Below are positions 1,974 through 45,353 of a stretch of 64,000 bases of DNA, piece after piece. A program made the translations under genes and the position numbers. Location: the NCBI GenBank assembly GCA_965261595.1, contig CBDHDG010000005.1, positions 896,001 through 960,000 on the forward strand, given 5' to 3'. Under the pieces are notes generated by a model. It worked only from the letters and a program-made list of their open reading frames with translations, had not been told where the DNA came from and made no database searches. Positions within the stretch are counted from its first letter, which is position 1. Each line of letters starts with the position of its first letter. The stretch is from a bacterium (GTDB lineage Bacteria; UBA8248; JACPRG01; G963555815).

Positions 1974-2523
1974 ATGGTGGAAATCACTGCGGTGCGGGGA
2001 GACATCACGCGTGAGAGCGTGGACGCCATCGTCAACGCCGCGAACACGAAGCTTCTGGGCGGGGGCGGCGTGGACGGGGCCATCCACCGGGCGGCGGGGC
2101 CGGACCTGTTGGCCGAGTGCCGAACCTTGGGGGGGGGGGTCCCAACCCCTGGGGGGTTCCCAACCCTTGGAGGGCTGCCCCACGGGCGAGGCCCGGATCA
2201 CGAAGGGCTACAAGCTGGCCGCGAAGCACGTCATCCATGCGGTGGGTCCGGTCTATCGGGACGGCGGACACGGCGAGGCGGAGAAACTGCGGGGTTGCTA
2301 CGTCCACGCCATGACGCTGGCGGCGGAGAACGGCGTCCGATCCATCGCCTTTCCCTCGATCAGCACCGGGGTTTACCGGTATCCCATCGATCAGGCCGCG
2401 AAGATCGCCGTCGAGACGGTGAGGGCCTGCCTGGAGAAACCGACCTCGGTCGAGGTTGTGCGGTTCGTGTGCTTCAGCGAAGAGGACCTGGCGGTTTATC
2501 GGAGGTCCTTGGAGCCCGGTTGA
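1974..2523 (+). pseudogene. Macro-domain O-acetyl-ADP-ribose deacetylase (YmdB-like), frameshifted by a ~40 bp repeat insert at 2129-2173
   Basis: GDIT...[22 protein letters not shown] in one frame; [10 protein letters not shown]...VIHAVGP...[13 protein letters not shown] in another. Confidence 0.85.
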
Positions 2524-9088: not shown

Positions 9089-10503
9089 CCGGAATTTCCC
9101 ATATCAAATCCGGACAGGCCTGTACCGACCCCTCGTTGCTGTTTAAGTCAATTAGACCTCTCTCTCCCGGACCTGTCAATCCCATTTCAGGTGCCTGAAA
9201 CCCTAATCGGAGCGTTATCCACCATTGAAAATCATGCCACCCCTCCGGGTAGGCGAGCCTTCCCAGCAGGTCATCTGGAAGGGACAGAACATTCACCATT
9301 TTGTCCTCGGGTGGACTGCGCTGAGAGCGGTTAGACAGGTACGGGCCGTAATCGGTTGATTCGGTCCAGGATGATGGCGAACTCTTCCCTGGACACCGCT
9401 ACTTCGGCCAATTGAAAGATGATCTACCGGGCGTGCCGCACAATCCTCCCGCCCATTTTGATGAGCTTGACCTGGAGGCTTCGGAGCGACCAGTGCTTGA
9501 GCCCCCTGGGCAAGGCTAGCCTGCGCAGGAAATTGCCCAGGTTGTACGCCAGGACGAAGAGAAGGAGCCGCACCTGGTTGCACACGAACCGGTGACAGGA
9601 AAGGCGTGTCCAGTTCAGGGCGTACTTGCCTTCCTTGATCCATTGCTCGGCTGTGCCTCGCTGGTTGTAGAAGTGCACGACCCCCTCGGGTCGAGCCGTC
9701 AGGTTCGTGACAATGAATCCGACGCGAGGGAAGAGTTCGCCTGAGTGCCATTCCACCTTCGCCACGACCCGCCGGGAACGGTCCCAGCTTCCAGCCTGAT
9801 ACCGGAAGTCGTAATAGAAGATGATGGGTCTCTTGGGCGGGCGACCGACCGGGCGGGTGAGGAGGAAGTCGATCTCTCGCTGCACCACGTCGTTGGCGGG
9901 AAGGCGGATGGCGTAAAGGAAGCTGTGCGCTTCCAGGCACTCATAGACCTCCGGGCGCGCAAAGGCGGCATCGGCTCGGAAGTAACGGCGAACACCCGCC
10001 CGCTCATACCGGGCCGCGATGGGCGAAAGCAACTCGCGCCAGCCATCGGCGCTGTGCACGTTGCCGGGGCGCAACATCGCCCCTTCGCAGTCCCCGAACT
10101 GGTTAAAGCAAAAAAGAGGGTGATAACAGGTGCAACGAAAGTGGCCGTTGTAGGCCGTACCTTCCTGCTCCCCATGGACGGGGCTTTCCGAGCTGTCCAT
10201 GTCCAGGATGATTCGCTGATGGGGTGAGTGTGCCATGGCCCGGTCCACCCACTCCCGGTTCAGCTCGCTCCGGCCCCTTGAGATTCTCCTCCCTGGTGAG
10301 AACCTCGGTCTCGAACCGGCTCAGGGTGTTGGCGCCCGCCGCCTGCTTCTCAAGCGCTCGGCGGCCGACCACGGCTTGCATCGCGGGGTCCTGGGCCAAC
10401 CGCTCGGCATCGTTGGTGTCTTCATACCCTGCCAAGCGGCTATAGACCGACTGGCGCAATAGCGGCGCCAACTCATGCTGGATGTTCCGGCCATGACGGA
10501 TCT
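9089..10503 (-). mobile_element. IS1380-family element remnant: 5' part lost, frameshift ~10272, premature TAG 9424-9426
   Basis: RQSVYSRLAGYEDTND, LDMDSSESPVHGEQEG.AYNGHF, FYNQRGTAEQWIKEGK; native C-terminus continues to TAA at 9331; end CCGGAATTTCCCATAT at 9089. Confidence 0.9.
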
Positions 10504-10545
10504 TGGACTTACCCCGGTTTCGTGGAGAGTTAAGCACTTGGGTTT

Positions 10546-11394
10546 TCAGGGTGTGCGTTGTTGTCTCCTTTCGTAGTTAACGGGTGACAGGTTGTCGATG
10601 GAGGAGTGCCGACGATGCGGGTTGTAGAAGCCCTCGATGAACCCGAACACCTCCATGCGCGCCTCGGCCCGGGTGCGGAAACTGTGGCGAGCGAGGAGCT
10701 CGCACTCCAGCGTGGCGAAAAAGCTCTCACACAGCGCGTTGTCGTAGCAGTCCCCGACCGAACCCATGGAGGGACGCCCGCCCGCCTGCCGGCAGCGCTG
10801 CCCAAAGGCGACCGAGGTGTACTGCGTGCCCTGGTCGGAGTGGTGGATGACGGCCCGGGGACGGCGCTTATACAGCGCCATGTCGAGCGCGTCGAGCACC
10901 AACTCGGCCCGCAGGTGTGTGGCCATCGACCACCCCACGATGCGCCGGCTGAACGCATCGAGCGCCACGGCCAGATACAAAAACCCCGCCCATGTCGGAA
11001 CGTAGGTGATGTCGGCCACCCACAGCCGGTCGGGGGCCTCGGCCGTGAAGTTGCGGTCCACCAGATCAGGGGCCGGCCGCGCCTCCTGCCGGCGCTGCGT
11101 CGTGCGCGCTCCCTTGCGCCGACTGACGCCCGCAAGTCCCGCCCCACGCATCAGCCTGGCGACGCGCTTGCGGCCCACACGCACTCCCTCAGCCTCCAAC
11201 TCGGCATGGACGCGCGGCACGCCGTAAGTCCCCCGAGAACGCTCGTGGATCGCCTGAATGCGTTTGGTGAGCGCCCGATCGGCACACGAGCGGGCACACG
11301 GCGCGCGCCTGCGCCACGCGTAGTAGCCGCTGGAGGAGACGCCCAGCACCCGGCACATGGTGGCGGTCCGATACATGGCCTGGTTCGCCCTCAC
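10546..11394 (-). CDS. IS3 transposase OrfB (DDE)
   Basis: WVADITY, HHSDQGTQY, DNALCESFFATLECE, YNPHRRHS. Confidence 0.95.
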   Translation of the reverse strand: MRANQAMYRTATMCRVLGVSSSGYYAWRRRAPCARSCADRALTKRIQAIHERSRGTYGVPRVHAELEAEGVRVGRKRVARLMRGAGLAGVSRRKGARTTQRRQEARPAPDLVDRNFTAEAPDRLWVADITYVPTWAGFLYLAVALDAFSRRIVGWSMATHLRAELVLDALDMALYKRRPRAVIHHSDQGTQYTSVAFGQRCRQAGGRPSMGSVGDCYDNALCESFFATLECELLARHSFRTRAEARMEVFGFIEGFYNPHRRHSSIDNLSPVNYERRQQRTP

Positions 11395-11705
11395 GAACCC
11401 GTAGATCCGGACGGGATCGAATCGGTATCCCGAGCAAACCAGGCCGCGGCTTTTGCTAAGATCTCCCGCTCCTGGCGGAGCTGTCGGTTCTCGCGGCGAA
11501 GTCGGCGCAACTCCTCCCGCTCATCGCTCGTGAGCCCGTCTTTGCGACGCCCCTCGTCAACGTCGGCTTGATGGGCCCAGGTGCGGATCGTCTGCGCCGA
11601 GGGCTCGAACTCGTGCGCCAGCGCCTCGGGCGTGCGTCCCGCCCGGACCAACTCTACCATCTGGCAGCGGAACTCCATTGGATAGCGTGGGTGAGTCTGT
11701 GGCAT
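11391..11705 (-). CDS. IS3 transposase OrfA (HTH)
   Basis: YPMEFR...ELRRLRRENRQLRQEREILAKAAAWFA; AAAAG slippage-like site; TGA overlaps the orfB GTG. Confidence 0.92.
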   Translation of the reverse strand: MPQTHPRYPMEFRCQMVELVRAGRTPEALAHEFEPSAQTIRTWAHQADVDEGRRKDGLTSDEREELRRLRRENRQLRQEREILAKAAAWFARDTDSIPSGSTGS

Positions 11706-11763
11706 CGTGAACACCTCCTTTACCCCCAAATCATCAGGTGTCCACCAAACCGGGTCAACTCCA

Positions 11764-12045
11764 GGGTGTACTGACGTACAATCTCCTCTATATTTAATTT
11801 GTTAGATGGAACGGCATCATTAGTTAGGGGAAGAATCTTGTTTAAATTCTTAATAGCTGTTTCTACCTTGTTAACTTTTTCGCTAAGTTGTTACGATACT
11901 TGTTTATTACTTCCTCACGTACAACCCATGGAATTTTGAGAGAAAAATCAGAGCGCCCCAGTAGTTTACGAAGTAACGCCACGCTTGTCCCTGTGAATTG
12001 TCCTGCAGCCACAAGGACAGTCGAATCAAGAATTACAACAGGCAT
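11764..12045 (-). pseudogene. PIN-domain protein N-terminus (DUF4935-like), frameshifted ~11880 and cut by IS3
   Basis: MPVVILDSTVL...LKIPWVVREEVINKY, then EKVNKVETAIKNLNKIL...EIVRQYT up to the IS end. Confidence 0.7.
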
Positions 12046-12107
12046 AACCACCTCTGGGGGTTTTCTGGTCCTTTAAATTTGCGAGCAGTTTTCATCTTGT
12101 AGAAAAA

Positions 12108-12303
12108 GGGGGTCTGGTCTTGAATTATAAGCTTCGGCATGGTTTCCGGTTCTGCGATGTCTTGACCTATCCCATCGAGCACCGAGGCGCGATTACCCAT
12201 GTTACCACCTGAGGAAATGGTCGTCTGGCGATTTACGAGGACAACGAAAATAGTTCCTCATCTCTTGCGACGCTTCAAGCTGACAATTCAAGACCTGACC
12301 CCC
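12108..12303 (+). mobile_element. RAYT-derived MITE, copy 1
   Basis: Terminal inverted repeats GGGGTC(T/A)GGTCTTGAATT...AATTCAAGACCTGACCCC; interior reads as decayed RAYT N-terminus (IEH.GAI.HVT..GNGR.AIYEDNE...LATL). Confidence 0.75.
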
Positions 12304-12504
12304 ATCACACTCCTCCACCAGCGAAACCCCTCAACCGCTCCAAGAAATTATTCAGGATTGAAGACCTGACCTCCAGGTTCCAGGTTAACCCGCATTTCTC
12401 ACAACATGTTCCGACGCAGAAATGTTTTTTGCCGGAAGACGGATCAATTGGCTATCAGTGGACCGCCCCTGGGTTATTGGACACTCGGGTGAGGGTATTC
12501 GACC

Positions 12505-13422
12505 TCATGCGGCCTCCGCAACTTGAGCGAGTTTTTCCTGCCTTGCCTGGGCCGGCGTTCGGTAGCCGTAGCCCTCGAGAATCCAATGATGGTTGTACAG
12601 GTTCTTGAACTCAAGCAGCGCCCACCGCAGTTCCTCTACGGTGGCGAAAGAGCGCACCCACAGGAGATTCTCCTTCAAGATGCGGATAAACCACTCACAG
12701 TAGCCATTTCCCTCGGGCGCCCGCACGAAGCTGGGCGAACTGGTCATGCCCAGGTAGGTGATCTCCCGCTGAAAGTCATCGGACAGATAGGCGGGGCCGT
12801 GGTCGTGACGAACTTTAAGCCCCTCGGCGACGTCCGCCTCCAAGCCGGCGAAGCGCTCGGCGACCCCCTGCCGGATCGGCTCCAGGGCCTCGAAGCGGTT
12901 GCCGCTCTTGGCCGCATGGATCCCCACGCAGTCCACCGAGCAGTGATCCACCGCCACGAACACCGAGGCCACCCCCTCCTCGGTGGTCACCGTCGTCGTC
13001 ATGTCCGTGCCCCACATTCGGTCGGGCCGCTCGGTGCGGATGGTCCCGTTGTGGGCCTTGGGACCTCGGGGTTTGCCCACCCGGTGGGGGGCCTGAAGCC
13101 CCGCCTCCCGCATCAGGCGACGCACCCGCTCCTTGCTGGTGCGGATGCCCGCGAAGCGCAGCCTCGCCCACACCTTGCGGTAGCCCTCGCCATGGAAGGG
13201 AGAGTCCTCCAGGACCTGCCGGATGTGGCCGAGGAGTTCCGCATCGGTGCACGGGCCCACAGGGCCGCGCTTATTGGGCGTGGGGCGTTCATGAACGGGG
13301 ACCGCCTCTCGCCGCCGTTGCGCGTAGACCGTGGAGCGCGCCAAGCCCCAAAGGGCGCACACCCGCTTCAGGCCGTAGGCTCTGCCCGTGGAGGTGAAGC
13401 GGGCCTGACTCATCGCCTCCAC
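12505..13422 (-). CDS. IS transposase OrfB (integrase core)
   Basis: GEGYRKVWARLR, MWGTDMT, RHDHGPAY, PEGNG. Confidence 0.92.
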   Translation of the reverse strand: MEAMSQARFTSTGRAYGLKRVCALWGLARSTVYAQRRREAVPVHERPTPNKRGPVGPCTDAELLGHIRQVLEDSPFHGEGYRKVWARLRFAGIRTSKERVRRLMREAGLQAPHRVGKPRGPKAHNGTIRTERPDRMWGTDMTTTVTTEEGVASVFVAVDHCSVDCVGIHAAKSGNRFEALEPIRQGVAERFAGLEADVAEGLKVRHDHGPAYLSDDFQREITYLGMTSSPSFVRAPEGNGYCEWFIRILKENLLWVRSFATVEELRWALLEFKNLYNHHWILEGYGYRTPAQARQEKLAQVAEAA

Positions 13423-13796
13423 CTCCTGCCGGCTAAAGGGCGGCCGGCCTCCAGGCGGTCGATCTTCTCCCGCAGGACCTCGCCCTCCATCGTGAGTTCG
13501 CCCACCTTGGCCTTGAGCCGGGCGTTCTCCTCGTCCCGCTCATCCGCCGGGCGGGCTTTGAGCGCCGCCTCGCCCGCGCGAAGGAACGCCTCGCGCCAGG
13601 CGGAAAGCCGAGCCGCTGTCGTGCCCAACTCGCGGCAGAGCGTCTCCAGGCTCTCGCCCCGCAAAAGACGCAGGACCGCCTCCCGCTTGCGCTGGCAGGA
13701 GAACCGACCCCGCTCACTGCGATGCCCTGGGGCCTTGGCTCCGTTCGCCCTGCGGGCGCCCTCCGCCAAAGCCCCCTCTTGCTTTTGTTCGTTCAT
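13410..13796 (-). CDS. IS transposase OrfA
   Basis: RKREAVLRLLRGESLETLCRELG..AARLSAWR...LKAKVGELTME. Confidence 0.88.
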   Translation of the reverse strand: MNEQKQEGALAEGARRANGAKAPGHRSERGRFSCQRKREAVLRLLRGESLETLCRELGTTAARLSAWREAFLRAGEAALKARPADERDEENARLKAKVGELTMEGEVLREKIDRLEAGRPLAGRRWRR

Positions 13797-13915
13797 CGCG
13801 ACACCCCTTTCTCCATGAATCATGGATCAATCGAGTGTCCAACAAAACCCTAGAGCGGGGGATCAGGGCGCACGCCGTGCGCCCCTTCTACGAGGGCGGG
13901 CGGAGACGGGGACCC

Positions 13916-28248: not shown

Positions 28249-30631
28249 TCACCCGTCCAGCCGCTCGATTCGGCAGCGGCTCGACCGGTTCGGCGTGGCG
28301 CCACTCACCGGGTCCACCACATCGCTCCCGATGATTCGGTTGAGGTTGGCTCCCGATTCCGAGAAGACGTCGTAGCCCGGAAGCTCCAGCTCTTTGCATT
28401 CCTGCCACCACCCGTGCTGGGTGCACACAACGTCGAGACGGATGGCGTCGGTCACGCGGGCCCGCATGCGGACGCTGCCTTGCGGGGTCTTGAGGCGGAC
28501 CCATTCCCCGTCGGACACCCCCAGCGCGCCGGCGGTTTGGGGATGGATGTCGACTTGGGGGTCCGGCCGCAGCTTTCTGAGGCTGGGAATGGCCCGGTGC
28601 TGCCCGTGGCAGAACTCCAACACCTTGGCCGTGATCATCGTGAGGGGGTAGCTTTCCGGATCGTCCGCCCCGGCCGGAAGCGGGGGCTCGAACTTCGGCG
28701 TCGGCGGCTGGCCCTTCTCAAGGAAGGATTCCAGGTAGAGCTCCACACGGCCCGTGGCGGTTTTGAATCCCCGGGGACGCCCGGTCTCCGGATTGGTTTC
28801 CCGGTATTTATGGTGTTTGACCGGAACGTTGACCTGTATCCCCGCCGGATTCTTCTCCAGATCCTTCAAGGTGAGCCCCGTGGGCGCGAGCTGGGCGTTG
28901 TAGGCGGCCCGGATGTCGCCGTCCCAGAACTGATCGCCCAGCCCCAGGCGCTTGGCCAGCTCGAAGATGATCTCCATGTCCGGCCGCGACTCATGGAGCG
29001 GCGGGACGATCCGCTTGCGAAGCTGGACGAACGTGGGCGCGTCGGTTCCCTGGAAGCCCGCCTTGACGTGGATGGATTCGAGGAAGGTCGAGGCGGGAAG
29101 GAGAATGTCCGCGAACCGGGCGACCGGCGTCTCGAACAGCTCGGCCAGAACGAAGAATTCAAGTTTCTCCAGCGCCTTCTGGCCTTCGAGGGTGTCGCAG
29201 GTCGAAAGGAGGATATTGCCGCCGAAGCTCACGATGGCCCGGATGGGGTAGGGCTTCCCCGTCAGGATGGCGCGAAACACCTCGTAAGGCGGAAGGTGGG
29301 CCGTCGTCCTGGGCGGGCCGAGGGGAAACCGCTCCCAAGCCAGGTTCTTCTCCCGCCTGCCGGGTGGCAGCAGGTGGACGCCGGCGACGCCCATCGCCCC
29401 CGCGCTCGGCCGGGCGATGTTGGCCCCGGGCGCGTCGATCTGACCCGTCAGGCTGAACAGCACTGAGATGGCCCGGTTTGTCTGCGTGGCGTTGGGGTGC
29501 TGCTCGACGCCGTTGTACGTGTAATAGCTGGAAGGTTTAACAGTAGCGAGCATGCGCGCCGCCCGGCGGATGTCGTCTTCGGGAACCCCCGTGATCCGGC
29601 TCACCTCGTCAAGGGGCGTCCGCCCGGCGGCTTCGACCAGGTGGTCCCAGGCCGTCCGGTAGGCGACGGTCTCCCCCGTCGGAAGCGGCGCCGTCCCGGC
29701 GGCGGACAGGGCGGGCGTCAGGGCGAGCGCTTCAAGGTCTTCCAAGGGATGGATCGCGCGGAGCGTCCTTCGCTCTTCGTCCCAGACGATGAACCGGTCT
29801 TCGCCGCCCTCGGGGTCGAGATCGCTTTCCCGCAGGAAGCGTCCTGTGTCCTCGCGGACGGCGAACGGCCCCGTCGTCCAGGTCCGGGCGAACGCCGGGT
29901 CGAACAATTCTTCCGCCAGGAGGACTTGGAGCATCCCCAGGGCCAGGCAGCCGTCGGTCCCGGGCCGGGACGGGCAGCCAGAGGTCCGCCTTATCGGCGA
30001 GGGGGATGCGCCGGGGGTCCACGACGATGAACTTGGCCCCGCGGTCCAGGGCCCGGAGGATGCTCCGGTAATGCCCGCGCCAGGTGTTCTCCGGGTTGTG
30101 GCCCCACAGGACGATGCAGGCCGTCCGGTCGAAATCCGGTTCGGCGATGCCGCTCCCGTAGGTGTAGCGGGAGGCGAAATCCTTGTGCCAGTTGCAGATG
30201 TACATGGCCGAGGAGATGTTGGGGCTGCCGAAGGTGAAGGCGAGGCGGTGGAACCAGGTGTTGAAGTCGCTGGAGGCGGCGCCGCCGGGCGAAGCCCGGT
30301 GGAAATCGACCGCCTCGGCCCCGGAGGCGTCCCGGATCTCCAGCAGCTTCTCGGCGATCGCGTCCAGGGTCTCCTCCCAGGTGATTCGCTCCCAGCCGGG
30401 ATCGGGGGAGGTCTTCGGTTTCGTCCGGCGAACGGGGTGTTTCAGGCGGTCCGGGTGATAGAGGAGCTCCGGCAGGGCCCGGCTCTTGGGGTCCAGCTCG
30501 ATCTCGTGCGGTCCGTTGGGGTGGTCGGGATCGGGGCGGACCTCGACGAGGCGGCCGTCTTCCACCACGCAGATGATCCCGCTCTGGGTTTTGCTCTGTG
30601 CGTCGTAGGTTCGGATCTCGGTCCTTGGCAT
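28249..30631 (-). CDS. Bis-MGD molybdopterin oxidoreductase (acetylene-hydratase-like group), split by +1 frameshift ~29968
   Basis: YHPDRLKHP, WERITWEE, SAMYICNWH, WGHNP, VVDPR, ADILLPAST.LE, C-terminal HGWW; extra C in the PV-R-PGTD motif. Confidence 0.85.
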
Positions 30632-30683
30632 GATCCTTTTCCCTTTCACAGCCCGCGGCGCCTTCTCTTCTCAAGAGGGGAAA

Positions 30684-31472
30684 TCACCCCTCCTCCAATA
30701 TCGCGACCGCCCGCACCCAGCCGGCGCTCCCCCGGGTGATCCGGATGGGAAAGATGGAAACCTTGAACCCGAACGGCTCGGGGATCAGGTCCAGGTTCGC
30801 CAACTTCTCCACGTGGCAGTATTACCGCTCTTTTCCTACGAAGTGGGCCGGGCAATAGGCCGCCTGGTTTCCGGCCTTGAGGTCTTTCGCCATGTCGGGC
30901 AAGGGCCGGTCGAAACTCCAGGCGTCGATCCCCGCGACCTTGACCCCCTGGTCCAGGAGCCAGAGCGTGCTCTCCCGGCCCATGCCGGGCTGGTTCAACA
31001 GGAAATCCGGTTTCTCGTACCGCTTCGTGGCGTCCGTTCGGATAAGGACGATGTCATAGGGCTTGATCCGGTATCTGATCTTCGCGACCGCTTCTTCCAT
31101 GTCCGGGACCGTGATCAGGTCCCCGGCCCCCTTGTGAGTCATATCGAGGACGACGCCGTCGGAGAAGCACCAATCGAGGGGGATCTCATCGGCCGTGCGG
31201 GCGGGCGACCCGGCGCACGTCGGCGAGAAGTGATAGGGAGAGTCGAGGTGGGTGCCCGAATGGGTGTTGATCTCCACGTCTTCGGCCGCGAGGGCCTGGC
31301 CGTCCGGCAGAAGGTCCGGGTCGAAGCCGATCCGCTGCGCTATCCGCCGTGCGCCCTCACGGTGGTTCCAGGGAGAGATGCGCACATGATCGCGATCGAA
31401 GGAGAAATTCTGGAGCGGAACGCTGAGGTCGATGCAGCGGATCCCCGGCCGTCCCTCCGATGAGTTCGACAT
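30684..31472 (-). pseudogene. Cyclase family protein, close paralog of 6459-7247, in-frame TAA at 30822-30824
   Basis: HSGTHLDSPYHF...GKER*YCHVEKLANL...WVRAVAILEEG. Confidence 0.88.
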
Positions 31473-31608: not shown

Positions 31609-32820
31609 TTATTTGCCTTTGGGCCTTTCCAGGTTGAACAGCTTCAAGGCGTTCTCTCCCAGGATGTTCCGCCGGCCCTGATCGCTCAGGAAGGGGAGAT
31701 CGAAGATCGCGCTGGGCGGATCGAAGTCCCAGTGGGGCCAGTCCGAGGCGTAGAGCAGTTGGGTCTCGGCGTTGATCATCTTGAACGTAAGCTCCAGGGC
31801 TTCGAGGTTGTCGGCTTCAAGGGGTTGAGAGGAATAATACATCTCGCGCATGTACTCGCTGGGTCGGCGTTTGAGGAGCGGAACCTCGGAGACCCGCTTC
31901 AGGAATTCATTGTCCAGCCGCTGCATGAGGAACGGCAGCCAGGCCAGGCCGCTCTCGATCCAGATGAGCTTGAGGCCGGGGAATCGCTCCGGAAGTCCGT
32001 TGACCACCCAGTTGATCATGTGGATCAGGTTCCACAGGACGAACCCGACGACGTGAACGCCGATGAACTTGGTCATCTGGGCCATGACCGGCTCTTCCCC
32101 CCAGGAGTAGCCGCCGTGGAAAGACAAGGGCATGCCGCGCTCCTGGAGGGTCGCGTAAAGCTTCATGTACTGGTTGTCGTGGACCGGCTTGTTCCGGGTG
32201 CTCGTCAGCATGAAACCGATCACGCCGGTCTGCTCGGAGAACTCCTCCACCGTCCGGACGGCCTCTTCCGGCGTGCTGAACGGCAGATACAGGAGCGACT
32301 TGATTCGATCGTCGCCGGAGAGCACGTGTTCCACCAGCCAGCGGTTGTAGGCCCGGGCCAGCAGGGCCTCGGTTCTCGGGTCCGGGTGCTTGCCCAGGTC
32401 GAGGAGCTTCGTCGGAAAAACGACCATGTAGTCCGTCCCGAATGACTCCATGGCCCGCCGGACGATGGTGACGTCCGTGTGAACGTCGGTGTCCTCGACC
32501 GGCTCGCGCCAGCCCGCCTGATGCTGGATGCGCCCGCCTACATCCTGGTAATACATGATGTTGTTCACCACGCCGTACGGGGGCGATGCCACCTTGCTGT
32601 GGTACTCGATGGCGTGGGCGCGCACGACCGGGTCCTCGATGTACTCCACAACATCCCGCCAGGACGCGTTGTCGGAATGATGGGAATCCACGTCGAAGAT
32701 CACGTAGTCCTTGTAGTTCCGCTTCTCGGCCTGCTGCCTGGCATGCGCGAGGATGTCCCGGGTGTCCGTGCGGTGGTGGATTTGTTCAAGGTCCGCCGCG
32801 CTCGCCGCTTTAGTCTCCAT
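31609..32820 (-). CDS. Amidohydrolase family 2 protein, candidate dimetal oxygenase
   Basis: DVDSHH, RAYNRW, LSFHGG, IESGLAW, YYSSQPLE, YASDWPHWDFD. Confidence 0.85.
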   Translation of the reverse strand: METKAASAADLEQIHHRTDTRDILAHARQQAEKRNYKDYVIFDVDSHHSDNASWRDVVEYIEDPVVRAHAIEYHSKVASPPYGVVNNIMYYQDVGGRIQHQAGWREPVEDTDVHTDVTIVRRAMESFGTDYMVVFPTKLLDLGKHPDPRTEALLARAYNRWLVEHVLSGDDRIKSLLYLPFSTPEEAVRTVEEFSEQTGVIGFMLTSTRNKPVHDNQYMKLYATLQERGMPLSFHGGYSWGEEPVMAQMTKFIGVHVVGFVLWNLIHMINWVVNGLPERFPGLKLIWIESGLAWLPFLMQRLDNEFLKRVSEVPLLKRRPSEYMREMYYSSQPLEADNLEALELTFKMINAETQLLYASDWPHWDFDPPSAIFDLPFLSDQGRRNILGENALKLFNLERPKGK

Positions 32821-32873: not shown

Positions 32874-33239
32874 TTATACAAGGACGTAGACGTCTCCGTC
32901 CCGCACCTCCACCTCGAACTTTTCCAGACGGATGTCGGGGTCCGCCGGATGCGCTCCGGTCCGGATGTCGTACTCGTAGCCGTGCCAGGGGCAGACAATG
33001 TGAATCTTCTCTTCGGCGAACCGGAGACCGAGGCTGGACTGGTCCTCTCCCAGGATCTCTTCCACGTCGCGGAAGAGACGGCCCTGGCAGACGGGACCGC
33101 CCTGGTGGGCGCAATGGTTCCGGTAGGCGTAATAGCTCGGGCCGACGCGGAAGACGCCAATCTCCAGATCATCCCGAACGATGATCTTGCAGTCCCCCTC
33201 CTCGAACTCCGCTTCGCTTCCGGCAAACAACTCAGCCAC
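32874..33239 (-). CDS. Rieske [2Fe-2S] ferredoxin
   Basis: NHCAHQGGP...VCPWHGYEYD. Confidence 0.92.
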   Translation of the reverse strand: MAELFAGSEAEFEEGDCKIIVRDDLEIGVFRVGPSYYAYRNHCAHQGGPVCQGRLFRDVEEILGEDQSSLGLRFAEEKIHIVCPWHGYEYDIRTGAHPADPDIRLEKFEVEVRDGDVYVLV

Positions 33240-33557
33240 GTTCTTCTCCTCCCGGGCGCTCGATGCTCACCAGGCGCGATTCAGTCTTTGAGAATTTACT
33301 CCCGTCAAGGTTAGTCCTAGTTGATCGCAAGGAATCCGCCTTCGAGGGCGAGGCCACGACTCAAATCGAATGCGCATCACAATGCGTTGCTGTTTTCCGC
33401 CCTTGATATATTGCGAACCCCTACTTGGGCCGGGCAGGATGCCCGGCCTACCCATTGGTGTTATCGCTGGTCCCCATATGGGGTGGGGCGGGCATCTTGC
33501 CCGCCTCGAATCCAACTGGGAATGTCCACATTATACACACGGCGGCCTTCCTTCTTT

Positions 33558-35936
33558 TCAGTCCATATCCCGCGCCTGAAGGGCGGTGAAAATCTTTTCC
33601 GGTGTCAGGGGAAGCGTCCGGATCCGGACCCCCACGGCGTCATACACGGCGTTGGCGATGGCGGCGGCCGTCGGCGTGACCGTCGTCTCGGCGAATCCTT
33701 TGGCGCCGAATGGTCCCTCCTCATCGTCGGAGGATACAACGATGGCGTGGACCGGAGGCATGTCCAGGGTGGTCGGCAGTTTGTAGTCGGCGAGGGTGCT
33801 GTTCACGAGCTGGCCCGACGCGGGGTCGAACACCATTTCCTCCATCAGGGCGTAGCCGACGCCCTGCATCACGCCCCCTTCGATTTGTCCCTCCACCCCC
33901 GGCGGGCAGATCGGAAAGCCCACGTCGTGCGCGGCGGCCAGACCGAGAACGCTCACCTGGCCGGTGTCGGGGTCCACCTCGACCTCCGCGACCTGGGCGC
34001 AGAAGCTGTAGGCGGCCGAAATGTTCCCGGAGTGGGTCTCCTTGTCGACGGTTTCGTGGGGCGGGTCGTAGACCCCCCGGCCCATGAAGAGCCGGCCGTC
34101 CCGCCGGTAATGGCCGGACCGTGCGACGTCGGCGATCCCGACGCGCCTTTGCGGCGACCCCCGGACGAATATCTCGCCCTCTCCCACGCGCAGATCCGCG
34201 GCGTCGGCCTCGAGGATTTCTCCCGCTTCCTGAAGGAGCTGGTCTTTCAGCTCGATGGCCGCCCGGCGGGCCGCGTTGCCGGCGATGAAGGTCATCCGGC
34301 TCCCGTGGGTCCCGAGGTCCCAGGGGACCACGTCGGTGTCCTCGCTGTGAATGCGGACGGCCTCGGGCGAGAGGCCGAGCTCCTCCGCCACGACGGCGGC
34401 GATCACCGAGTCCTGCCCGCTCCCGATCTCCGTCGCGCCCGTCAGCACCTGAACCGTCCCGTCGTCCTCCATCTTCACGGTCACGCCGCAGAGGTCGGTG
34501 TTCCGGTAGACGCGGACCCCGCCGCCGCAGTGGACGGCGCAGGCGATGCCGATCCCCCGGCCGAACGTGCGGTCCTTCTTCTTCCCGGCCCAATCCAGGG
34601 CGCCCGCCGCCTTCTCGATGCATTCCCGCATGCCACAGCTTGTGATCCGGTACCCGCAGGCGGAGACGTCTCCGCTCTCCGTGACGTTCTTCAGCCGGAG
34701 CGCCACGGGATCCAGGCCGAGTTTCTCCGCCAGGACGTCCAGGTGGATCTCCCGGGCGAAGGTCCCCTGTGGGTTCCCGTACCCCCGGTAGGAGCCGCCG
34801 TAGTTCTTGTTGGTGTAGACGATCCTGGCGTTGAACCGGTAATGCTCGACCTTGCTGTATGTGGTGATGTTGTAGTTGGCCGCCGTGAACGTGACGCCCG
34901 GGGCCCCGCTCATGTAGGCGCCGTTGTCGGTGACGATCTCCATCTCCTGTCCCAGGATGCGGCCGCCGCGCGTGGCGCCGGTCCGGAGCCGGATGCCCAT
35001 GGGGTGCCGCGTTCTCGACCCCACGAAGTCTTCCTCCCGGGAGAGCATGAGCCGGACGGGCCGCCCGGTCTCCATGGCCAGCAGGGCGCAGATGGGATGG
35101 AAGTCGTGCATCTCCATGCGCTTTCCGAACCCGCCGCCGATGGCCGTTCGAATGATCCGGACGCGGCTTTCCGGAAGGCCGAGGCAGTCGGCCAGGTGTT
35201 TTCGTAAAAGAAAAGGCATCTGGATCGACGTCCAGACCGTCAGGCGGCCGGTCCGGTCGTATCGGGCGAGACAACCCTGGGTCTCCAGACAGCAGTGCTC
35301 GACCTGCGAGGTCTCGAATTCGTCCTCGATCACGACGTCCGCCTCGGCGAGCGCCCGGTCCACGTCGCCGAAGTTCATGGCCAGTTCGATGGCCACGTTT
35401 TCCGCGACGCCTTCGTGCACTTCGGGGGCGTCCGCCGCCATGGCCCGGCGGGGGGAAAGAACGGCGGGCAGCTCTTCGTACTCGACCCGAATCAGGCTGA
35501 GGGCCTCCTCGGCGACGTCGTCTCCGGCGGCCGCCACGGCGGCCACCTCCTCTCCGGCGAATCGGACCTTTTCATGCGCCAGCGGGAGCTTGTCGGCAAG
35601 ACGCCGGTTTCCGGGGTCGGCGTCCTGGCGGAAACCATACCGGAGCAGCGGTGTGTCCCGGGCCGTGAGGATCGCCTGGACGCCGGGCAGGGCCGCGGCG
35701 GCCCCGGTGTCGATGCCGAGAATCCGCGCGTGAGCGTAGGGGCTACGGAGGATCTTCCCGGTCAGCGCGTCCGGCAGCGTGAAGTCCGTCCCGTAAACGG
35801 TCGTTCCGGCGGCCTTGGGCGCTCCGTCGTGCTTGGGGAATCGCCGGCCGACGACCCGATAGTTTCTCCCCTCCCCCTCATCCTTCATGCGGGTCTCCGG
35901 GCTCGGTTGGAGGTTGCCACTGGTCTTTCTCATCAT
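33558..35936 (-). CDS. Xanthine dehydrogenase family molybdopterin-binding subunit
   Basis: ILRSPYAHARI, GGGFGKR, YRGYGNPQ, EGQIEGG, GPFGAKG. Confidence 0.93.
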   Translation of the reverse strand: MMRKTSGNLQPSPETRMKDEGEGRNYRVVGRRFPKHDGAPKAAGTTVYGTDFTLPDALTGKILRSPYAHARILGIDTGAAAALPGVQAILTARDTPLLRYGFRQDADPGNRRLADKLPLAHEKVRFAGEEVAAVAAAGDDVAEEALSLIRVEYEELPAVLSPRRAMAADAPEVHEGVAENVAIELAMNFGDVDRALAEADVVIEDEFETSQVEHCCLETQGCLARYDRTGRLTVWTSIQMPFLLRKHLADCLGLPESRVRIIRTAIGGGFGKRMEMHDFHPICALLAMETGRPVRLMLSREEDFVGSRTRHPMGIRLRTGATRGGRILGQEMEIVTDNGAYMSGAPGVTFTAANYNITTYSKVEHYRFNARIVYTNKNYGGSYRGYGNPQGTFAREIHLDVLAEKLGLDPVALRLKNVTESGDVSACGYRITSCGMRECIEKAAGALDWAGKKKDRTFGRGIGIACAVHCGGGVRVYRNTDLCGVTVKMEDDGTVQVLTGATEIGSGQDSVIAAVVAEELGLSPEAVRIHSEDTDVVPWDLGTHGSRMTFIAGNAARRAAIELKDQLLQEAGEILEADAADLRVGEGEIFVRGSPQRRVGIADVARSGHYRRDGRLFMGRGVYDPPHETVDKETHSGNISAAYSFCAQVAEVEVDPDTGQVSVLGLAAAHDVGFPICPPGVEGQIEGGVMQGVGYALMEEMVFDPASGQLVNSTLADYKLPTTLDMPPVHAIVVSSDDEEGPFGAKGFAETTVTPTAAAIANAVYDAVGVRIRTLPLTPEKIFTALQARDMD

Positions 35937-37329: not shown

Positions 37330-38634
37330 TCAGAAAACCCGCTGGTCCTCGACGTCTGTGGCGACGGCCAGGAGGGCGCGCTCGACGAGCTTTCGCCGGA
37401 ACGCCTTCTCTTCCGCGGGCCCCAGGTCGGGGTTGCCCGTGACGTGCGGGATCCCGGCCCCGGTCACGATCCGGTTCGCTCCGACGTTCTTCGCGATCGA
37501 CGTGAGCGTCGCAATCAGGGCCGCCGGAAGCCCCTGCCGCTCAATCTCCTTCGCGACCGCTGACCCGCAGCGGGTGCACGTCCCTCACGTGGAGGTGACG
37601 AGGACCGCGTCCACCCCCGCCGCCTTCAGATCGAGGGCGATTTCCTTTCCCATCCGCGCCCCGGCCTCGTAATACGTGCTGCACCCGGCCAGGGTGTAGA
37701 AGTGGTCGAAGACCTTTCTGATCCGCCCCTGTGCTTCCAGCTCCCGAAGGGCGTCCAGGGGGACGATCCGGTTGGGGTCCTCGTTGACGTAGGCGGTTGA
37801 ATACCCCCCGTGATTGCCTTCGTAGGCGGAAGGGTCGAGGCCGTCGAGGCCGGCCAACGCGTATTTGCCGAAACGCGTCGCCATGGTGGATTCGAGTCGA
37901 TCGGGGTTTCCCTTGGGCGTCAGACCCCCGGTCGTGACCAGTGAGATGGTGGTCTTCGTCAGGTCTTTGACGGGCGGCGCCGGCGGCGTCCGGTCGAATT
38001 TCGGCATCACCAGCTCGGTCTCGAACGCCCGGCCTCCGGTCTTCGCCAGGAGCATCTCGATGGCCCGGTCGGCCCCCTTCTTCCCGACGCGGATGTTCCT
38101 GCGGAATCCCCGGGGGAAGGTTCCTTCCTCCCGGGGAGGGCTGGGGGTCTCGCCCCGCAGGAGCTTCAAGCCCAGGCGGCCCATGGCCGCGAGGGCCGCG
38201 TTCATCCCCCGGACGTTGTCCGAGGTGGAAACGATGTAGGCGTCCTTCCGGTATTCCAGGCCCGGGTTTTCCGGCGCCATGGCGGTCAGCGTCGGGATGT
38301 CGAGGGCTTGGCCGACCTTTCGGCAGAGGACGCCGCAGGCGTACCCGTAGCGTCCGGCGTTGAAGGCCGGCCCGGCCACGAAGAGATCCGGCTTAGCGCT
38401 TTGGATGATCTCCAGCAGCGCCTCCGCCGCTTCCTCGGTGCGCTCGGCGAAGAAGTCATCCCCGCAAACGGCGGTCAGGACGATCTCCCCTTCGCCGCGC
38501 AGCGCCTCCTGAAGCGGCCGTCCCGGCCCCGTGGCCCCCGGAAGGGCGTCGGGGCCGGCGGAGGCCTGTGTCTCTCCGCCGATCCCCGCGAAGAACTGAT
38601 TCAGGTAATGGACGACCCGCATCCGATCAGTCAT
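37330..38634 (-). CDS. Glycine/sarcosine/betaine reductase selenoprotein B family protein; Sec at TGA 37585-37587
   Basis: VHYLNQFFAGIGGE, GPAFNAGRYG, HGGY...DPNR.VPLD, VTST-U-GTCTRCG, then the conserved tail GANRIV..AGIPH.TGNP to the stop at 37330. Confidence 0.93.
37553..37584 (-). promoter_or_regulatory. Putative bacterial SECIS hairpin
   Basis: After UGA: GGGACGUGCAC-CCGCUG-CGGGU-CAGCGG; loop starts 17 nt after the UGA and contains G. Confidence 0.7.
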
Positions 38635-38936
38635 GTCTATCCCTCCCGCAAATTTCGCGGGCAACAGGTTACCGAAAAATCCCTTGAGGCGGAAGGAGGA
38701 GGCGATGGCGGACAGACACAACCGTCTCTTGCCGCCAGTGGCGCCTTGAAGGCGGGCAGGATGCCCGCCCTACCTAAATGGTTGTACGCCTCTCATGCCC
38801 GCCGGTCGGCCGGGCATCCTGCCCGGCTCGGTCGGATTAGCGCGCCTCTTTTATGGTCTGATGCCGCCATCGGCGTGCAACAGGTCTTCGCGGTCGGTAT
38901 TCTGAGCGCGCCTGAACCGGATTTCTCGACCCCATG

Positions 38937-40205
38937 TCAGAACTCCTGGACGCCCAGGTCATTGTCCCCGAAGAAGCTGACCGGCCCCGGGATCTTGTTG
39001 TAGGGGACCTCGACGGGCGCGCCGGGGTCCTGGTCATAGTCCTTTAGCCGCTCGCCGCCGATGACCCGGTTCATCCCCGGGAGCGGGAGCATTTCCGCGC
39101 AGTTGCCCAGGGCGACGATGGCGTCGGCCCGGGGGCTGGCGTCGGCCAGGGCGCCCTCCGAGGAGCCGCCCGCCCCGGCGAACTCCATCGCAAGGATCGT
39201 CGTCTTGATTCCCTTCTCCTCGCAGCGCTCGCAGGTCAGCATGAGGTCGGTGTCCGCCTGTCCGCCCCCGTCCTTGGTGATCACCACACTGTCCACGCCC
39301 AGGATGTCCTTCGCCAGGTGAGCCACTTGCTCCGCGTTGAAGGCCTTTTCGGCGAAGAGCTTGTGATGGTTGGCGAGGATGGTGGCGGCGTAATGAAGGG
39401 TTTCCCCGTCGTCCCGGTAAAGGGAGCGGATGATCCCGTTGTTCTGGTTGTCGTACGTCATGTTCTTGGTCGGCCGGCTGAACCCGGCCCAGACGACGGC
39501 TCCGTCCATGATTTCATTGGGGTGAATGAGCGTCGGGGCCAGCGCCCGGGTGTCCCGCCCGTAGACGAGCATGTCCCGGAGGTCGCCGTGGGAGTAGAGG
39601 AAATAGACATACGCGATTCTGGGAAGGGCGGAGTCTTCTCCCGCTCTCTCCGCCGAAGGGGGCAGCTCGAAATCTTCCGCCAACTCCGGCGTTTTCCCCT
39701 CGGCCGTCCGTCCGAGGTAATGGGCGGCCCGGACGCCCGTCTCGACCGCCGCCTTCGCGAACCCGGTCCGGCTCAATCCGTCGGCGGGGTTCAGGGTGAG
39801 CACAATGTTTTCCAGGCCGGAGAAGACGCTGAGGTCCGCACAGGGCCCGGTCATGTCCAACAGGGCGTCCTCGGCACCTTCGAGGGGTCCGCACGTCACG
39901 ACCGAGACCCCTTGCAGTACGTTCGTGACGCCGCTGCCCACGAGGCCGGCGTCGCCGAGGATTCCGGGAAAGGTCTCTCCTTCGCCCGAGACCTTCACAC
40001 GGGGTTCGAAGATGTCGAGGATGTTGATGACCCGGCAGGACTCGCCGGGGTGAGCCAGGTCGATCTCGACGGAGCGAAGCCTCTTATCCTGCGCGAGAAG
40101 GTCTCTCAACTCCCCCCGATTCAGAAGCAGCCTGTGGCCGTCGAGCTCCGTTCGCCGGGAGTCTTCGACCCGCTCGACCGGAAAATTTTGCAAAGTCAAC
40201 TTCAC
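38937..40205 (-). CDS. Glycine/sarcosine/betaine reductase component B proprotein (GrdE/GrdI-like)
   Basis: MKLTL..F.V, PGES.R...DIFEPRVK, LLDMTGP, LIHPNEIMDGA, TYDNQNN, D.DLML.C. Confidence 0.88.
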   Translation of the reverse strand: MKLTLQNFPVERVEDSRRTELDGHRLLLNRGELRDLLAQDKRLRSVEIDLAHPGESCRVINILDIFEPRVKVSGEGETFPGILGDAGLVGSGVTNVLQGVSVVTCGPLEGAEDALLDMTGPCADLSVFSGLENIVLTLNPADGLSRTGFAKAAVETGVRAAHYLGRTAEGKTPELAEDFELPPSAERAGEDSALPRIAYVYFLYSHGDLRDMLVYGRDTRALAPTLIHPNEIMDGAVVWAGFSRPTKNMTYDNQNNGIIRSLYRDDGETLHYAATILANHHKLFAEKAFNAEQVAHLAKDILGVDSVVITKDGGGQADTDLMLTCERCEEKGIKTTILAMEFAGAGGSSEGALADASPRADAIVALGNCAEMLPLPGMNRVIGGERLKDYDQDPGAPVEVPYNKIPGPVSFFGDNDLGVQEF

Positions 40206-43615: not shown

Positions 43616-44614
43616 TCACTTCGCCATTTGCGGAAGGAACGCGTTGGTGTAGACGTCGTCGGTTTTCACGCGCACCTTCAGCGGGGTGTACTTGGTGATG
43701 ATGTCCACCGTCCGGTCCATTTTCCCGGAGTCCATATAGCCCAGGCCGTGCTCGATCACGCCCTGATCGATATTGAGCTTCCGGGTCTGGTGGTACTGCA
43801 AGCGGACCACCTTCGGGTTCGAGGTGGGGGAGTACTTCAAGAAGTTGTTCAGGCACTTGTCCATGTACACCATGCAGTGACCCCAGGCGTCGATGCTGGC
43901 GCGGACGAACCGCTTGAGGATCCCGGGGTTGTTCCGGATGGTGTCATCGTGGGCGATCGATGCCGTTGGCGTAGATGTCCACGCCCCACTCGCTGAAGCG
44001 CAACATCTCGCTGTCTTTTCCCGCTTTGCGGGCGGCCGCCTGGAAGTTGGGCTGTTCGTCGGCGAAGATGGGAATGGCGTCCAGCTTGCCCGTCAGGACG
44101 CCCGGGAGCATGGTGCCGTAACCCAAGGTGGTCCAGGAAACCGTTTTGGGGTCCAGGCCGTTGGCGTTGGCGAAGGCGGGGAACACCTTCCAGGCCGCGT
44201 CCCCTTCGGGACCGCCCAGCCGCGCGCCGGCGAGATCTTTGGGGTGTTTGTATCCTTTCGACTTGAGGTGCCAGATGGCCATGGGGGTCTTGGCGTAATA
44301 CATGGCGAGAACTTTGACCTTGGCTCCCTTCGAGCGGCGATGATTAAGGAGCCCACGTCGGCGAAGCCGAGGGGCGCCGTCTTTGCGGCGATGCGCTTGA
44401 TGGTGTCCCCGGAACCAAAGCCCCGCTCGATTTTTACGTCGAGGCCCTCCTTCTTAAAGTACCCGAAGTCCTTGGTGGCAAAGAAGGGGACGTGCTCGCT
44501 GTAGAAGATCCAGTCCAAATACCAAGTCACTTTTTCCTGGGCCGCGGGGGACCCAATCCAGCCAGCCGCAATCAGCCACGCGCTTACGATGACTGCCGTC
44601 ATTCCCTTTTTCAT
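43616..44614 (-). pseudogene. NMT1/THI5-like substrate-binding protein with frameshifts ~44335 and ~43958
   Basis: LDWIFYSEHVPF...GFGSGDT, then AIWHLKS...DIYANG, then DVYTNAFL in successive frames. Confidence 0.8.
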
Positions 44615-44738
44615 TTTTCCCCCCTTGGAATGGGCTTGAGCGGAAGCTTGAAATCGCATTCCGCGTGAGACCATATAGGGTGGTGCTCCGTCGAAATTTC
44701 CGACTTTCCCGGGGCGCATTTCCGCGTTCGGACTTCTC

Positions 44739-45353
44739 CTATGGGTCATAAATCTGAACCCGCAACGGCCCGCCCGTGGCGGGGCAGGCGCTCAGCGCGC
44801 ACAGGACGTCCATCTCGGCCACGCAATCAACGTAGTCGCCGGGCTGGCTCCGGCCTTCGGCGAGGGCGAACCTCCCTTCCTCCGGAACGAAGTCCACGGT
44901 TTGAAACAGGTTCAACGGGTCGGGGATGTCCTCGGCCGGGATGTTCCAGGGCTTGAGTGCCTCAGTCAGGATCTCCCAGCAGCCGACCTCGGGCCGGCCG
45001 AGGGCGCCGCCCACGGTGAAGCCCTCGGCGAAGCTGTGTGATTCTCTCTGGTAGACGAACCGGCTGCACATCCCGTATTGCAGGTCATGAATGCCGTACG
45101 TGTCCTCGACGATGGTCAGCATGACGTTGTTGGACTTGGAGTAGAGGTGATCCCCCGTGGAGATCAAATACTTTCCCGGGTTGGATCGGGTTCGGGATTG
45201 GTTGAACCGCTCGCTGAGGTCGTTGGCGTTGAACAGGACCAGGTCGCCGATCTGTCCGCCCTCGACGTCGATGAACCGGATGCGCCGCCCCTTCTTCACG
45301 ATCCACGCCCCGCCCCGACGGGCCGGAATGGTTTCATCCTTGAGAAGATTCAT
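44739..45353 (-). CDS. DUF1989 / urea carboxylase-associated family protein
   Basis: IDVEGGQIGDL..FNA, EDTYGIHD, GC, LNLF, SQPGDYV, LSACP. Confidence 0.87.
   Translation of the reverse strand: MNLLKDETIPARRGGAWIVKKGRRIRFIDVEGGQIGDLVLFNANDLSERFNQSRTRSNPGKYLISTGDHLYSKSNNVMLTIVEDTYGIHDLQYGMCSRFVYQRESHSFAEGFTVGGALGRPEVGCWEILTEALKPWNIPAEDIPDPLNLFQTVDFVPEEGRFALAEGRSQPGDYVDCVAEMDVLCALSACPATGGPLRVQIYDP

Follow-up and report, generated by a model that had tools for sequence, protein, structure and literature searches.

A minus-strand gene at 28249–30631 of a 64,000-nucleotide stretch of bacterial DNA (GTDB lineage UBA8248; positions 896,001 to 960,000 of the forward strand of contig CBDHDG010000005.1, assembly GCA_965261595.1; hereafter the window) encodes a protein of about 793 amino acids (aa) of the MopB family, whose members bind molybdenum or tungsten through two pyranopterin guanine dinucleotides (Mo/W-bisPGD). 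MopB enzymes normally carry an N-terminal [4Fe-4S] cluster, FS0, with the usual ligands C-x2-C-x3-C...C. In the window protein these ligands are replaced by D-x2-S-x3-S...D, and the replacement is found letter for letter in three intact relatives. The gene occurs in a small group of bacteria that have not been cultured. Judged from sequence, it fairly probably belongs to a cytoplasmic, stand-alone, FS0-less Mo/W-bisPGD enzyme, whose family is large, uncharacterised and akin to acetylene hydratase.

The FS0 motif and the predicted metal ligand

The gene is split into two overlapping open reading frames (ORFs). The N-terminal part (29969–30631, minus strand; codons 1–221, in the frame of ORF 29732..30649) extends from the ATG at 30631 to a frameshift, and the C-terminal part (28249–29967, minus strand) extends from RPGTDG to the stop codon at 28249–28251. 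The start was set by the homologues P0003 and P0004, which begin MPRTEIR. In Pfam searches, PF00384 matched both halves (E = 3.7e-17 and 1.5e-15), covering residues 68–226 of the N-terminal part, and PF01568 matched the C-terminal part (E = 6.7e-25). The intact relatives L001 and P0005 carry both domains, as is required of the MopB or dimethyl sulfoxide reductase fold, and the family assignment made in a preliminary description of this DNA agrees with these matches. The Pfam scan gave no match to the Fe4S4 domain PF04879 in either half, the NCBIfam scan yielded no family model above its cut-off, and a search of a protein atlas returned generic names only.

The N-terminus translates as MPRTEIRTYDAQSKTQSGIICVVEDGRLVEVRPDPDHPNGPHEIELDPKSR, and the motif region reads RTYDAQSKTQSGIICVV...HEIELDPKSR. 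Counted from the ATG at 30631, the lost motif spans 30491–30604 (minus strand) and consists of D10 (GAC, 30602–30604), S13 (AGC, 30593–30595), S17 (AGC, 30581–30583) and D47 (GAC, 30491–30493), with a spare cysteine, Cys21, at 30569–30571. We built a profile from 18 family members, in which the columns C-x2-[C/S]-x3-C...LCPKG were aligned to C-Q-S-C-D-I-N-C...ICMKS of acetylene hydratase (structure 2e7z). In this alignment D10, S13, S17 and D47 fall exactly on the four FS0 cysteine positions of acetylene hydratase, where the ligands are Cys9, Cys12, Cys16 and Cys46 (excerpt of PMC12096430).

The putative ligand of the metal itself is conserved. Cys146 (codon 30194–30196, minus strand) lies in SAMYIC, which aligns with the SAMYMC of acetylene hydratase that holds the tungsten ligand Cys141, and 262 of 266 aligned relatives have a cysteine at this position. 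The LCxKG motif keeps its lysine (Lys49) as well. The preliminary description had reported the change of all four cysteines to D/S/S/D, the preserved flanks PDPDHP and YHPDRL, and the resemblance of SAMYIC to acetylene hydratase; all of these details were reproduced here. It had also noted that a signal for twin-arginine translocation (Tat) is missing, and indeed no twin-arginine motif is visible by eye in the N-terminus.

Relatives, phylogeny and selection

A HMMER search with the N-terminal part against 1.84 billion cluster representatives produced 5226 matches at E ≤ 0.001, and with the C-terminal part a word-indexed search scored 8000 candidates, of which 1342 were relatives at E ≤ 1e-10. 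The closest are P0003 (793 aa, 95% identity) and P0004 (793 aa, 78–82% identity; source name Candidatus Tectomicrobia), both intact, followed by P0005 (801 aa, 70% identity), which still has four cysteines (D-C-C-C-C). Among 270 aligned rows, D/S/S/D occurs in three, namely the window protein, P0003 and P0004. A 209-aa fragment with 73% identity, P0123, reads A/S/G/D at the same four sites. Apart from these, none of the 270 rows is without cysteine at all four aligned positions, 27 rows being unaligned in this region. A scan of GTDB species representatives found 80 family loci, and among the 79 that could be aligned only L001 has D/S/S/D. L001 is an intact 798-aa ORF (positions 9986–12382 of its locus) with 92% identity to the window protein, and its gene order is the same as in the window for 10 kb upstream. 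The presence of identical D/S/S/D residues in P0003, P0004 and L001 indicates that the substitutions are real and not a product of sequencing error, as the preliminary description had argued from their coordination; the DxxSxxxS homologues that it proposed to look for are these three.

The four D/S/S/D sequences form a monophyletic group in a FastTree phylogeny of 75 rows, with P0005 as sister, both at support 100. A quick IQ-TREE search on 40 rows, in which the first 60 residues were omitted, recovered the same clade and the same sister at 100%. In both trees the stem of the clade measures about 0.5 changes per site, and its deeper placement is not resolved.

Comparison of the window gene with L001 by the Nei–Gojobori method gave dN/dS (the ratio of non-synonymous to synonymous substitution rates) of 0.192, with dN = 0.044 (77.2 changes over 1792 sites) and dS = 0.231 (118.8 changes over 599 sites). 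The ratio is similar in the two parts of the gene (0.21 in the N-terminal and 0.19 in the C-terminal part). The selection on the clade is purifying. The preliminary description had named a decaying gene, with close homologues that all keep the cysteines and with relaxed selection in this copy, as the outcome that would overturn its proposal; the closest homologues are themselves without the cysteines and dN/dS is 0.19.

Residues 1–60 are the most conserved segment within the clade (P0004 is 92–93% identical to the remaining three here, compared with 81–82% overall), yet they are the most diverged segment with respect to P0005 (67–70%). Of 209 columns with at least 80% conservation among the 70 remaining family members, the four members retain 178, and they retain 169 of the 194 such columns beyond the first 60 residues. 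They also keep 67 of 71 columns outside the N-terminus whose conservation in the family reaches at least 95%. The following changes are specific to the clade and do not occur in P0005: C17S, C47D, G50S, T142A, H144Y, L257A, L665M, E694D and E714K/R. Two of them, T142A and H144Y, convert the family sequence TTHIC to AMYIC immediately before the ligand cysteine, in this clade only; the cluster was therefore lost together with an alteration adjacent to the active site.

Graded FS0 motifs in the family

Intermediate forms of the motif occur among the relatives. Some members have C-x2-S-x3-C-x3-C...C and others D-x2-C-x3-C-x3-C...C, and in these two variants the spare cysteine, located four residues past the third ligand, could replace the missing ligand. 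In 19 of 79 GTDB loci (L002, L008, L009, L011, L017, L022, L024, L026–L028, L030–L036, L043 and L046) the motif is C-x2-S-x3-C...C with no spare cysteine, and the combination of three cysteines and a serine suggests a [3Fe-4S] cluster or a serine-ligated cluster. The window clade, which keeps only the spare cysteine, appears as the end point of this graded series.

The family as a whole has no canonical iron–sulfur (Fe-S) partner. No recurrent Fe-S subunit was found among the 127 ORFs that neighbour 27 family loci, and relatives of about 1140 aa (P0136–P0138, P0144, P0146–P0147 and others) carry a C-terminal fusion to FNR-like NAD-binding and plant-type 2Fe-2S ferredoxin domains. Such fusions would be self-sufficient NAD(P)H-linked molybdoenzymes. 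Given the lack of a recurrent Fe-S subunit and the presence of the fusions, the ancestral family looks like a stand-alone cytoplasmic redox enzyme. The earlier remark that the window gene has no adjacent Fe-S partner concerns a trait of the whole family and not one specific to the clade.

A second acetylene-hydratase-like lineage, typified by P0242 (E = 4.4e-94 to 2e7z), is also poor in cysteines at the FS0 site. It is metagenomic and uncharacterised, and its size is 7801 matches at E ≤ 1e-30. P0242 was examined together with 119 relatives of at least 58% identity (the set comprises P0242, P0247 and P0393–P0511, all from outside the window), and all 113 of the 120 proteins that could be anchored have zero to two cysteines at the FS0 site. 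The ligand position is a cysteine in P0242, the one member checked. The P0242-type motif, VSDVDxHSQC...GELTxRG, differs from that of the window clade, and the identity to the window N-terminal part is about 37%. Some members have Tat-like leaders, and some are annotated as formate dehydrogenase in ANME-1 archaea. The preliminary description mentioned neither the graded series nor this second lineage, nor the nonsense codon in the adjacent cyclase gene described below.

Lesions in the window copy

The two parts of the window gene are separated at 29966–29972 (minus strand), where one extra C at about 29968 yields GTCCCGG in place of the GTTCGG of L001. The window sequence at the break is CTGCCCGTCCCGGCCCGGGACC, compared with ...CCCGTTCGGCCTGGGACC in the 92%-identical L001, which reads through as LPVRPGTDG. 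Programmed frameshifting was considered and rejected by eye, as the site has neither a slippery heptamer nor a nearby stop, and the zero frame continues for about 78 codons. The neighbouring cyclase gene contains an in-frame TAA at 30822–30824 (minus strand) where the 94%-identical L001 has GAA; over the 46 codons past this TAA, 130 of 138 nucleotides match L001. Across about 13 kb of synteny, no coding lesion other than the frameshift and the TAA is left uncompensated.

The most serious alternative to a functional FS0-less enzyme is that the window copy is a pseudogene, in an operon that was recently switched off, and that the odd N-terminus is part of the outgoing gene. The +1 frameshift at 29968 and the TAA in place of the GAA of L001 speak for it, all the more as the only two such lesions in about 13 kb sit in neighbouring genes. 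Against it, D/S/S/D is older than the lesions, being common to three intact genes at 78–95% identity; dN/dS is low, and conservation past both lesions is no lower than in other regions. The window contains further split genes, one of them beside a run of 11 G, pointing to assembly errors. We therefore regard the pseudogene explanation as a real possibility that falls somewhat short of even, and it can hold for the window copy only, not for the clade. Whether the operon was freshly inactivated in this genome or was mis-assembled is a nearly even choice.

Three further sites of interrupted genes were recorded in the window. At 2100–2200 (plus strand) a Macro-domain gene is broken across two frames next to the G11 run and a repeated tcccaacccc/tgggg stretch, which looks like a sequencing or assembly artefact. 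At 43944–44749 (minus strand) an NMT1-type binding-protein gene is divided between two frames, with Pfam profile positions 3–58 and 70–179 in different ORFs. An insertion-sequence cluster at 9424–13823 contains a DDE transposase split in two frames and two rve integrase-type transposases with helix-turn-helix partners.

Fate of the cofactor and of the old cluster site

A further explanation is that the clade consists of non-catalytic proteins with a MopB fold that have lost the metal cofactor, like Nqo3, ActB, QrcB and FhcB. Cofactor-less MopB homologues do exist (excerpt of PMC10100899), and in NarG and DmsA replacement of FS0 cysteines blocks insertion of the molybdenum cofactor (excerpt of PMC10609526), so that loss of the cluster within a cluster-bearing family could leave a protein free of cofactor. 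The metal-ligand cysteine, by whose absence cofactor-less members are identified (excerpt of PMC10100899), is kept in the clade, as are 67 of the 71 most conserved columns outside the N-terminus, and purifying selection acts across the whole length. On the QrcB model the score is 70.6 bits against a cut-off of 440, and the combined loss of ligand and bisPGD core that characterises cofactor-less members was not observed. We consider this explanation improbable.

Slightly less probable still is the persistence of a metal centre at the old FS0 site, either a mononuclear ion or an Fe-S cluster with oxygen ligands, held by the aspartates, the serines and Cys21. D10, S13, S17, C21 and D47 do not vary among the four full-length members, no segment is more conserved than the N-terminal domain, and ligand swaps are tolerated in relatives (C-S-C-(C)-C, D-C-C-(C)-C and the three-cysteine C-S-C...C). 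Nevertheless, the P0123 fragment, with A/S/G/D at a distance of 73% identity, indicates that the positions are not fixed as ligands, and the Pfam Fe4S4 model no longer matches. A [4Fe-4S] site with one cysteine or none is not known, which also counts against this explanation.

Comparison with characterised MopB enzymes

The best match of known structure is acetylene hydratase of Pelobacter acetylenicus (2e7z), with E = 5e-25 for the N-terminal part, 6.6e-75 for P0003 and 7.7e-118 for the family profile; the second best is polysulfide reductase (2vpw). The window protein resembles acetylene hydratase in being cytoplasmic and stand-alone, with a length in the range of about 730–800 aa and a cysteine ligand in SAMY(I/M)C. 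The tryptophan that aligns with Trp179 of acetylene hydratase (numbered by our own count, which is offset by 3) is also kept. Unlike acetylene hydratase, which is strictly anaerobic, the window protein is encoded in an oxygenase-rich locus; it has lost all four FS0 cysteines and has a lysine (Lys14) in place of Asp13. That aspartate is essential and subfamily-specific in acetylene hydratase, where it stands beside the second FS0 cysteine (excerpt of PMC12096430), and it is present at the equivalent position in 0 of 186 aligned relatives. In spite of the match to 2e7z and the similarity around the ligand cysteine, the Asp13 test, the missing FS0 and the aerobic context leave hardly any probability that the protein is an acetylene hydratase, and this identity was rejected.

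FS0-less MopB enzymes are textbook knowledge in the serine-ligated lineage. DorA, TorA and BisC are reductases without FS0 in which Mo-bisPGD is the sole prosthetic group (excerpts of PMC10609526 and PMC10100899). The window protein likewise has no N-terminal cluster, and BisC shares with it a cytoplasmic, monomeric character. BisC can use NADPH directly. DorA, TorA and BisC differ from the window protein in lineage and in having a serine ligand to molybdenum (excerpt of PMC10100899, Table 1), in contrast to the cysteine predicted here. P0003 scores 138.3 bits on the bisC_fam model against a cut-off of 1017.55, and 67.6 on torA against 1465. Loss of FS0 in the window clade, which both trees nest inside a cluster-bearing family, is independent of the loss in DorA, TorA and BisC.

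The large subunit of pyrogallol–phloroglucinol transhydroxylase (PgtL; 4v4c) belongs to the MopB enzymes and transfers a hydroxyl group on an aromatic ring, a reaction that is non-redox overall. It is without FS0 and has an Fe-S beta subunit. Its match to P0003 is weak (E = 4.6e-11 over residues 64–249) and does not place the window protein among the transhydroxylases and resorcinol hydroxylases. The transhydroxylase has a serine ligand (excerpt of PMC10100899, Table 1), unlike the cysteine-ligated window protein, beside which there is no beta-subunit gene.

The other characterised relatives of acetylene hydratase are the catechol dehydroxylases. Many uncharacterised homologues of these enzymes (Dadh, Cldh and Dodh) occur in aromatic degraders from soil and aquatic habitats (excerpt of PMC7028382), and the window family is similarly often found beside aromatic-acid genes. 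Catechol dehydroxylases are described with 4Fe-4S partners and, in Eggerthella, with Tat signals and membrane anchors (excerpt of PMC7028382); compared by description, the window gene differs from them in having no 4Fe-4S partner, Tat signal or membrane anchor.

Genomic neighbourhood

The minus-strand genes are ordered as a UbiD-type decarboxylase, an NMT1-type binding protein, GrdE-like and GrdB-like genes, a dihydropyrimidinase-like amidohydrolase and a xanthine-dehydrogenase-family molybdenum subunit, followed by a terminator-like hairpin (33373–33386) and then by a Rieske ferredoxin, a PF04909 protein, a cyclase-family hydrolase and the MopB gene. L001 shows identical synteny. At 17 of 80 family loci, a UbiD-type gene occurs within 10 kb.

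The small Rieske [2Fe-2S] ferredoxin is encoded at 32874–33239 (minus strand; 982 homologues) and the PF04909 protein at 31609–32820 (minus strand). The best match of known structure of the latter is 8sm7 (E = 3.4e-43), followed by 8sm6, 6m1w and 6omp, all of which are amidohydrolase-related dinuclear oxygenases (AROs; excerpt of PMC10811679). The solved matches of the ARO-like protein include SfbO, AibH and PtmU3. The cyclase-family hydrolase (PF04199; 30684–31472, minus strand) has isatin hydrolase (5nnb) as a weak best solved match (E = 5e-6).

Small Rieske proteins encoded beside PF04909 genes are reported to be the electron donors of AROs (excerpt of PMC10811679), and the Rieske and PF04909 pair is probably an uncharacterised multicomponent monooxygenase. 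The Rieske protein as an electron partner of the MopB protein was considered and dropped, because its family is large and because small Rieske proteins beside PF04909 genes serve AROs; only the neighbourhood linked the two. It is likely the partner of the ARO and not of the MopB protein. The statement in the preliminary description that there is no adjacent Fe-S partner is therefore right in practice, with the correction that a Rieske gene does lie two genes upstream. No 4Fe-4S ferredoxin gene is present within the operon. An Rfam scan of the whole window gave nothing, including no molybdenum cofactor riboswitch, and a promoter scan gave no sites.

Two features on the upstream side of the hairpin were recorded in addition. 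The xanthine-dehydrogenase-family molybdenum subunit (33558–35936, minus strand) matches the 4-hydroxybenzoyl-CoA reductase alpha subunit best in NCBIfam, with 675 bits, which is below the cut-off, and neither an Fe-S nor an FAD subunit gene adjoins it. The GrdB-like gene (selenoprotein B family, TIGR01918, 388 bits) and the GrdE/GrdG-like gene at 37585–40205 (minus strand) lie among hydantoinase-, dihydropyrimidinase- and xanthine-dehydrogenase-type genes, with no other glycine reductase components in view.

Proposed function

In a cytoplasmic, stand-alone, FS0-less enzyme the pterin-bound metal would be the sole redox cofactor, with no internal electron wire. One option is that an external donor exchanges electrons directly with the metal or pterin, as in DorA, TorA and BisC. 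The other is a net non-redox transfer of a hydroxyl group or water, as in acetylene hydratase and pyrogallol transhydroxylase. The two are equally open from the sequence. The preliminary description had proposed a cluster-less, possibly non-redox enzyme, either a hydratase or a transferase; its first half is supported by the loss of the FS0 ligands, and its second half is tempered by the fact that the known FS0-less enzymes DorA, TorA and BisC are reductases. The gene would probably be co-transcribed with those of the Rieske ferredoxin, the O2-dependent amidohydrolase-fold oxygenase and the cyclase-type hydrolase, and our best guess for the substrate is a hydroxylated intermediate, aromatic or heterocyclic, of an aerobic catabolic pathway. 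We speculate that loss of an oxygen-labile cluster may suit such an aerobic setting. A more specific version, to which we attach a rather low probability, is that the clade comprises an independently evolved, FS0-free, active, cysteine-ligated Mo/W-bisPGD enzyme that is oxygen-tolerant and net non-redox and acts downstream of the amidohydrolase-fold monooxygenase.

Several observations weigh against the proposal of an active FS0-less enzyme. The window MopB gene is frameshifted and the neighbouring cyclase gene has a TAA. The family is uncharacterised in activity, metal content and structure, with no NCBIfam model reaching its cut-off, and the assignment of a substrate is a guess. The effect of FS0 replacement in NarG and DmsA, mentioned above, belongs here too. 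Co-transcription is suggested by gene order and one hairpin, and the number of terminators predicted is not above that in shuffled controls. The clade stands on its long stem of 0.5 changes per site, with four full-length sequences known, and dN/dS comes from a single DNA pair, the window gene and L001.

Significance

FS0 is usually viewed as the obligatory point of electron entry in cysteine-, selenocysteine- and aspartate-ligated MopB enzymes. In NarG and DmsA, insertion of the cofactor also requires it (excerpt of PMC10609526). We found no description of an FS0-less, cysteine-ligated MopB enzyme in the literature, neither of the window clade nor of the P0242-type lineage, PMC10100899 being represented in this survey by a part of its text. 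The clade is a real, independently evolved variation on a known theme, of moderate interest and mainly as a natural experiment on the need for FS0. That interest is lowered by the known examples DorA, TorA and BisC, by the much larger and likewise cysteine-poor P0242-type family, and by the lesions in the MopB and cyclase genes. The practical weight of the finding is similarly limited, as another lineage already has MopB enzymes without FS0, the window copy is broken, and the substrate is only guessed.

A clade under purifying selection that is without the four ligands and retains the metal ligand and the core of the protein provides a natural test of both roles of FS0. If its members are active and FS0-free, a type-I MopB enzyme would be able to fold and take up the pterin cofactor without the cluster, and the motifs CCCC, C-S-C-C, D-C-C-C and D-S-S-D would constitute a natural series for asking what purpose FS0 serves. 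The clade also draws attention to a large uncharacterised family of acetylene-hydratase-like proteins in soil and groundwater bacteria, encoded among genes for the catabolism of aromatic and heterocyclic compounds.

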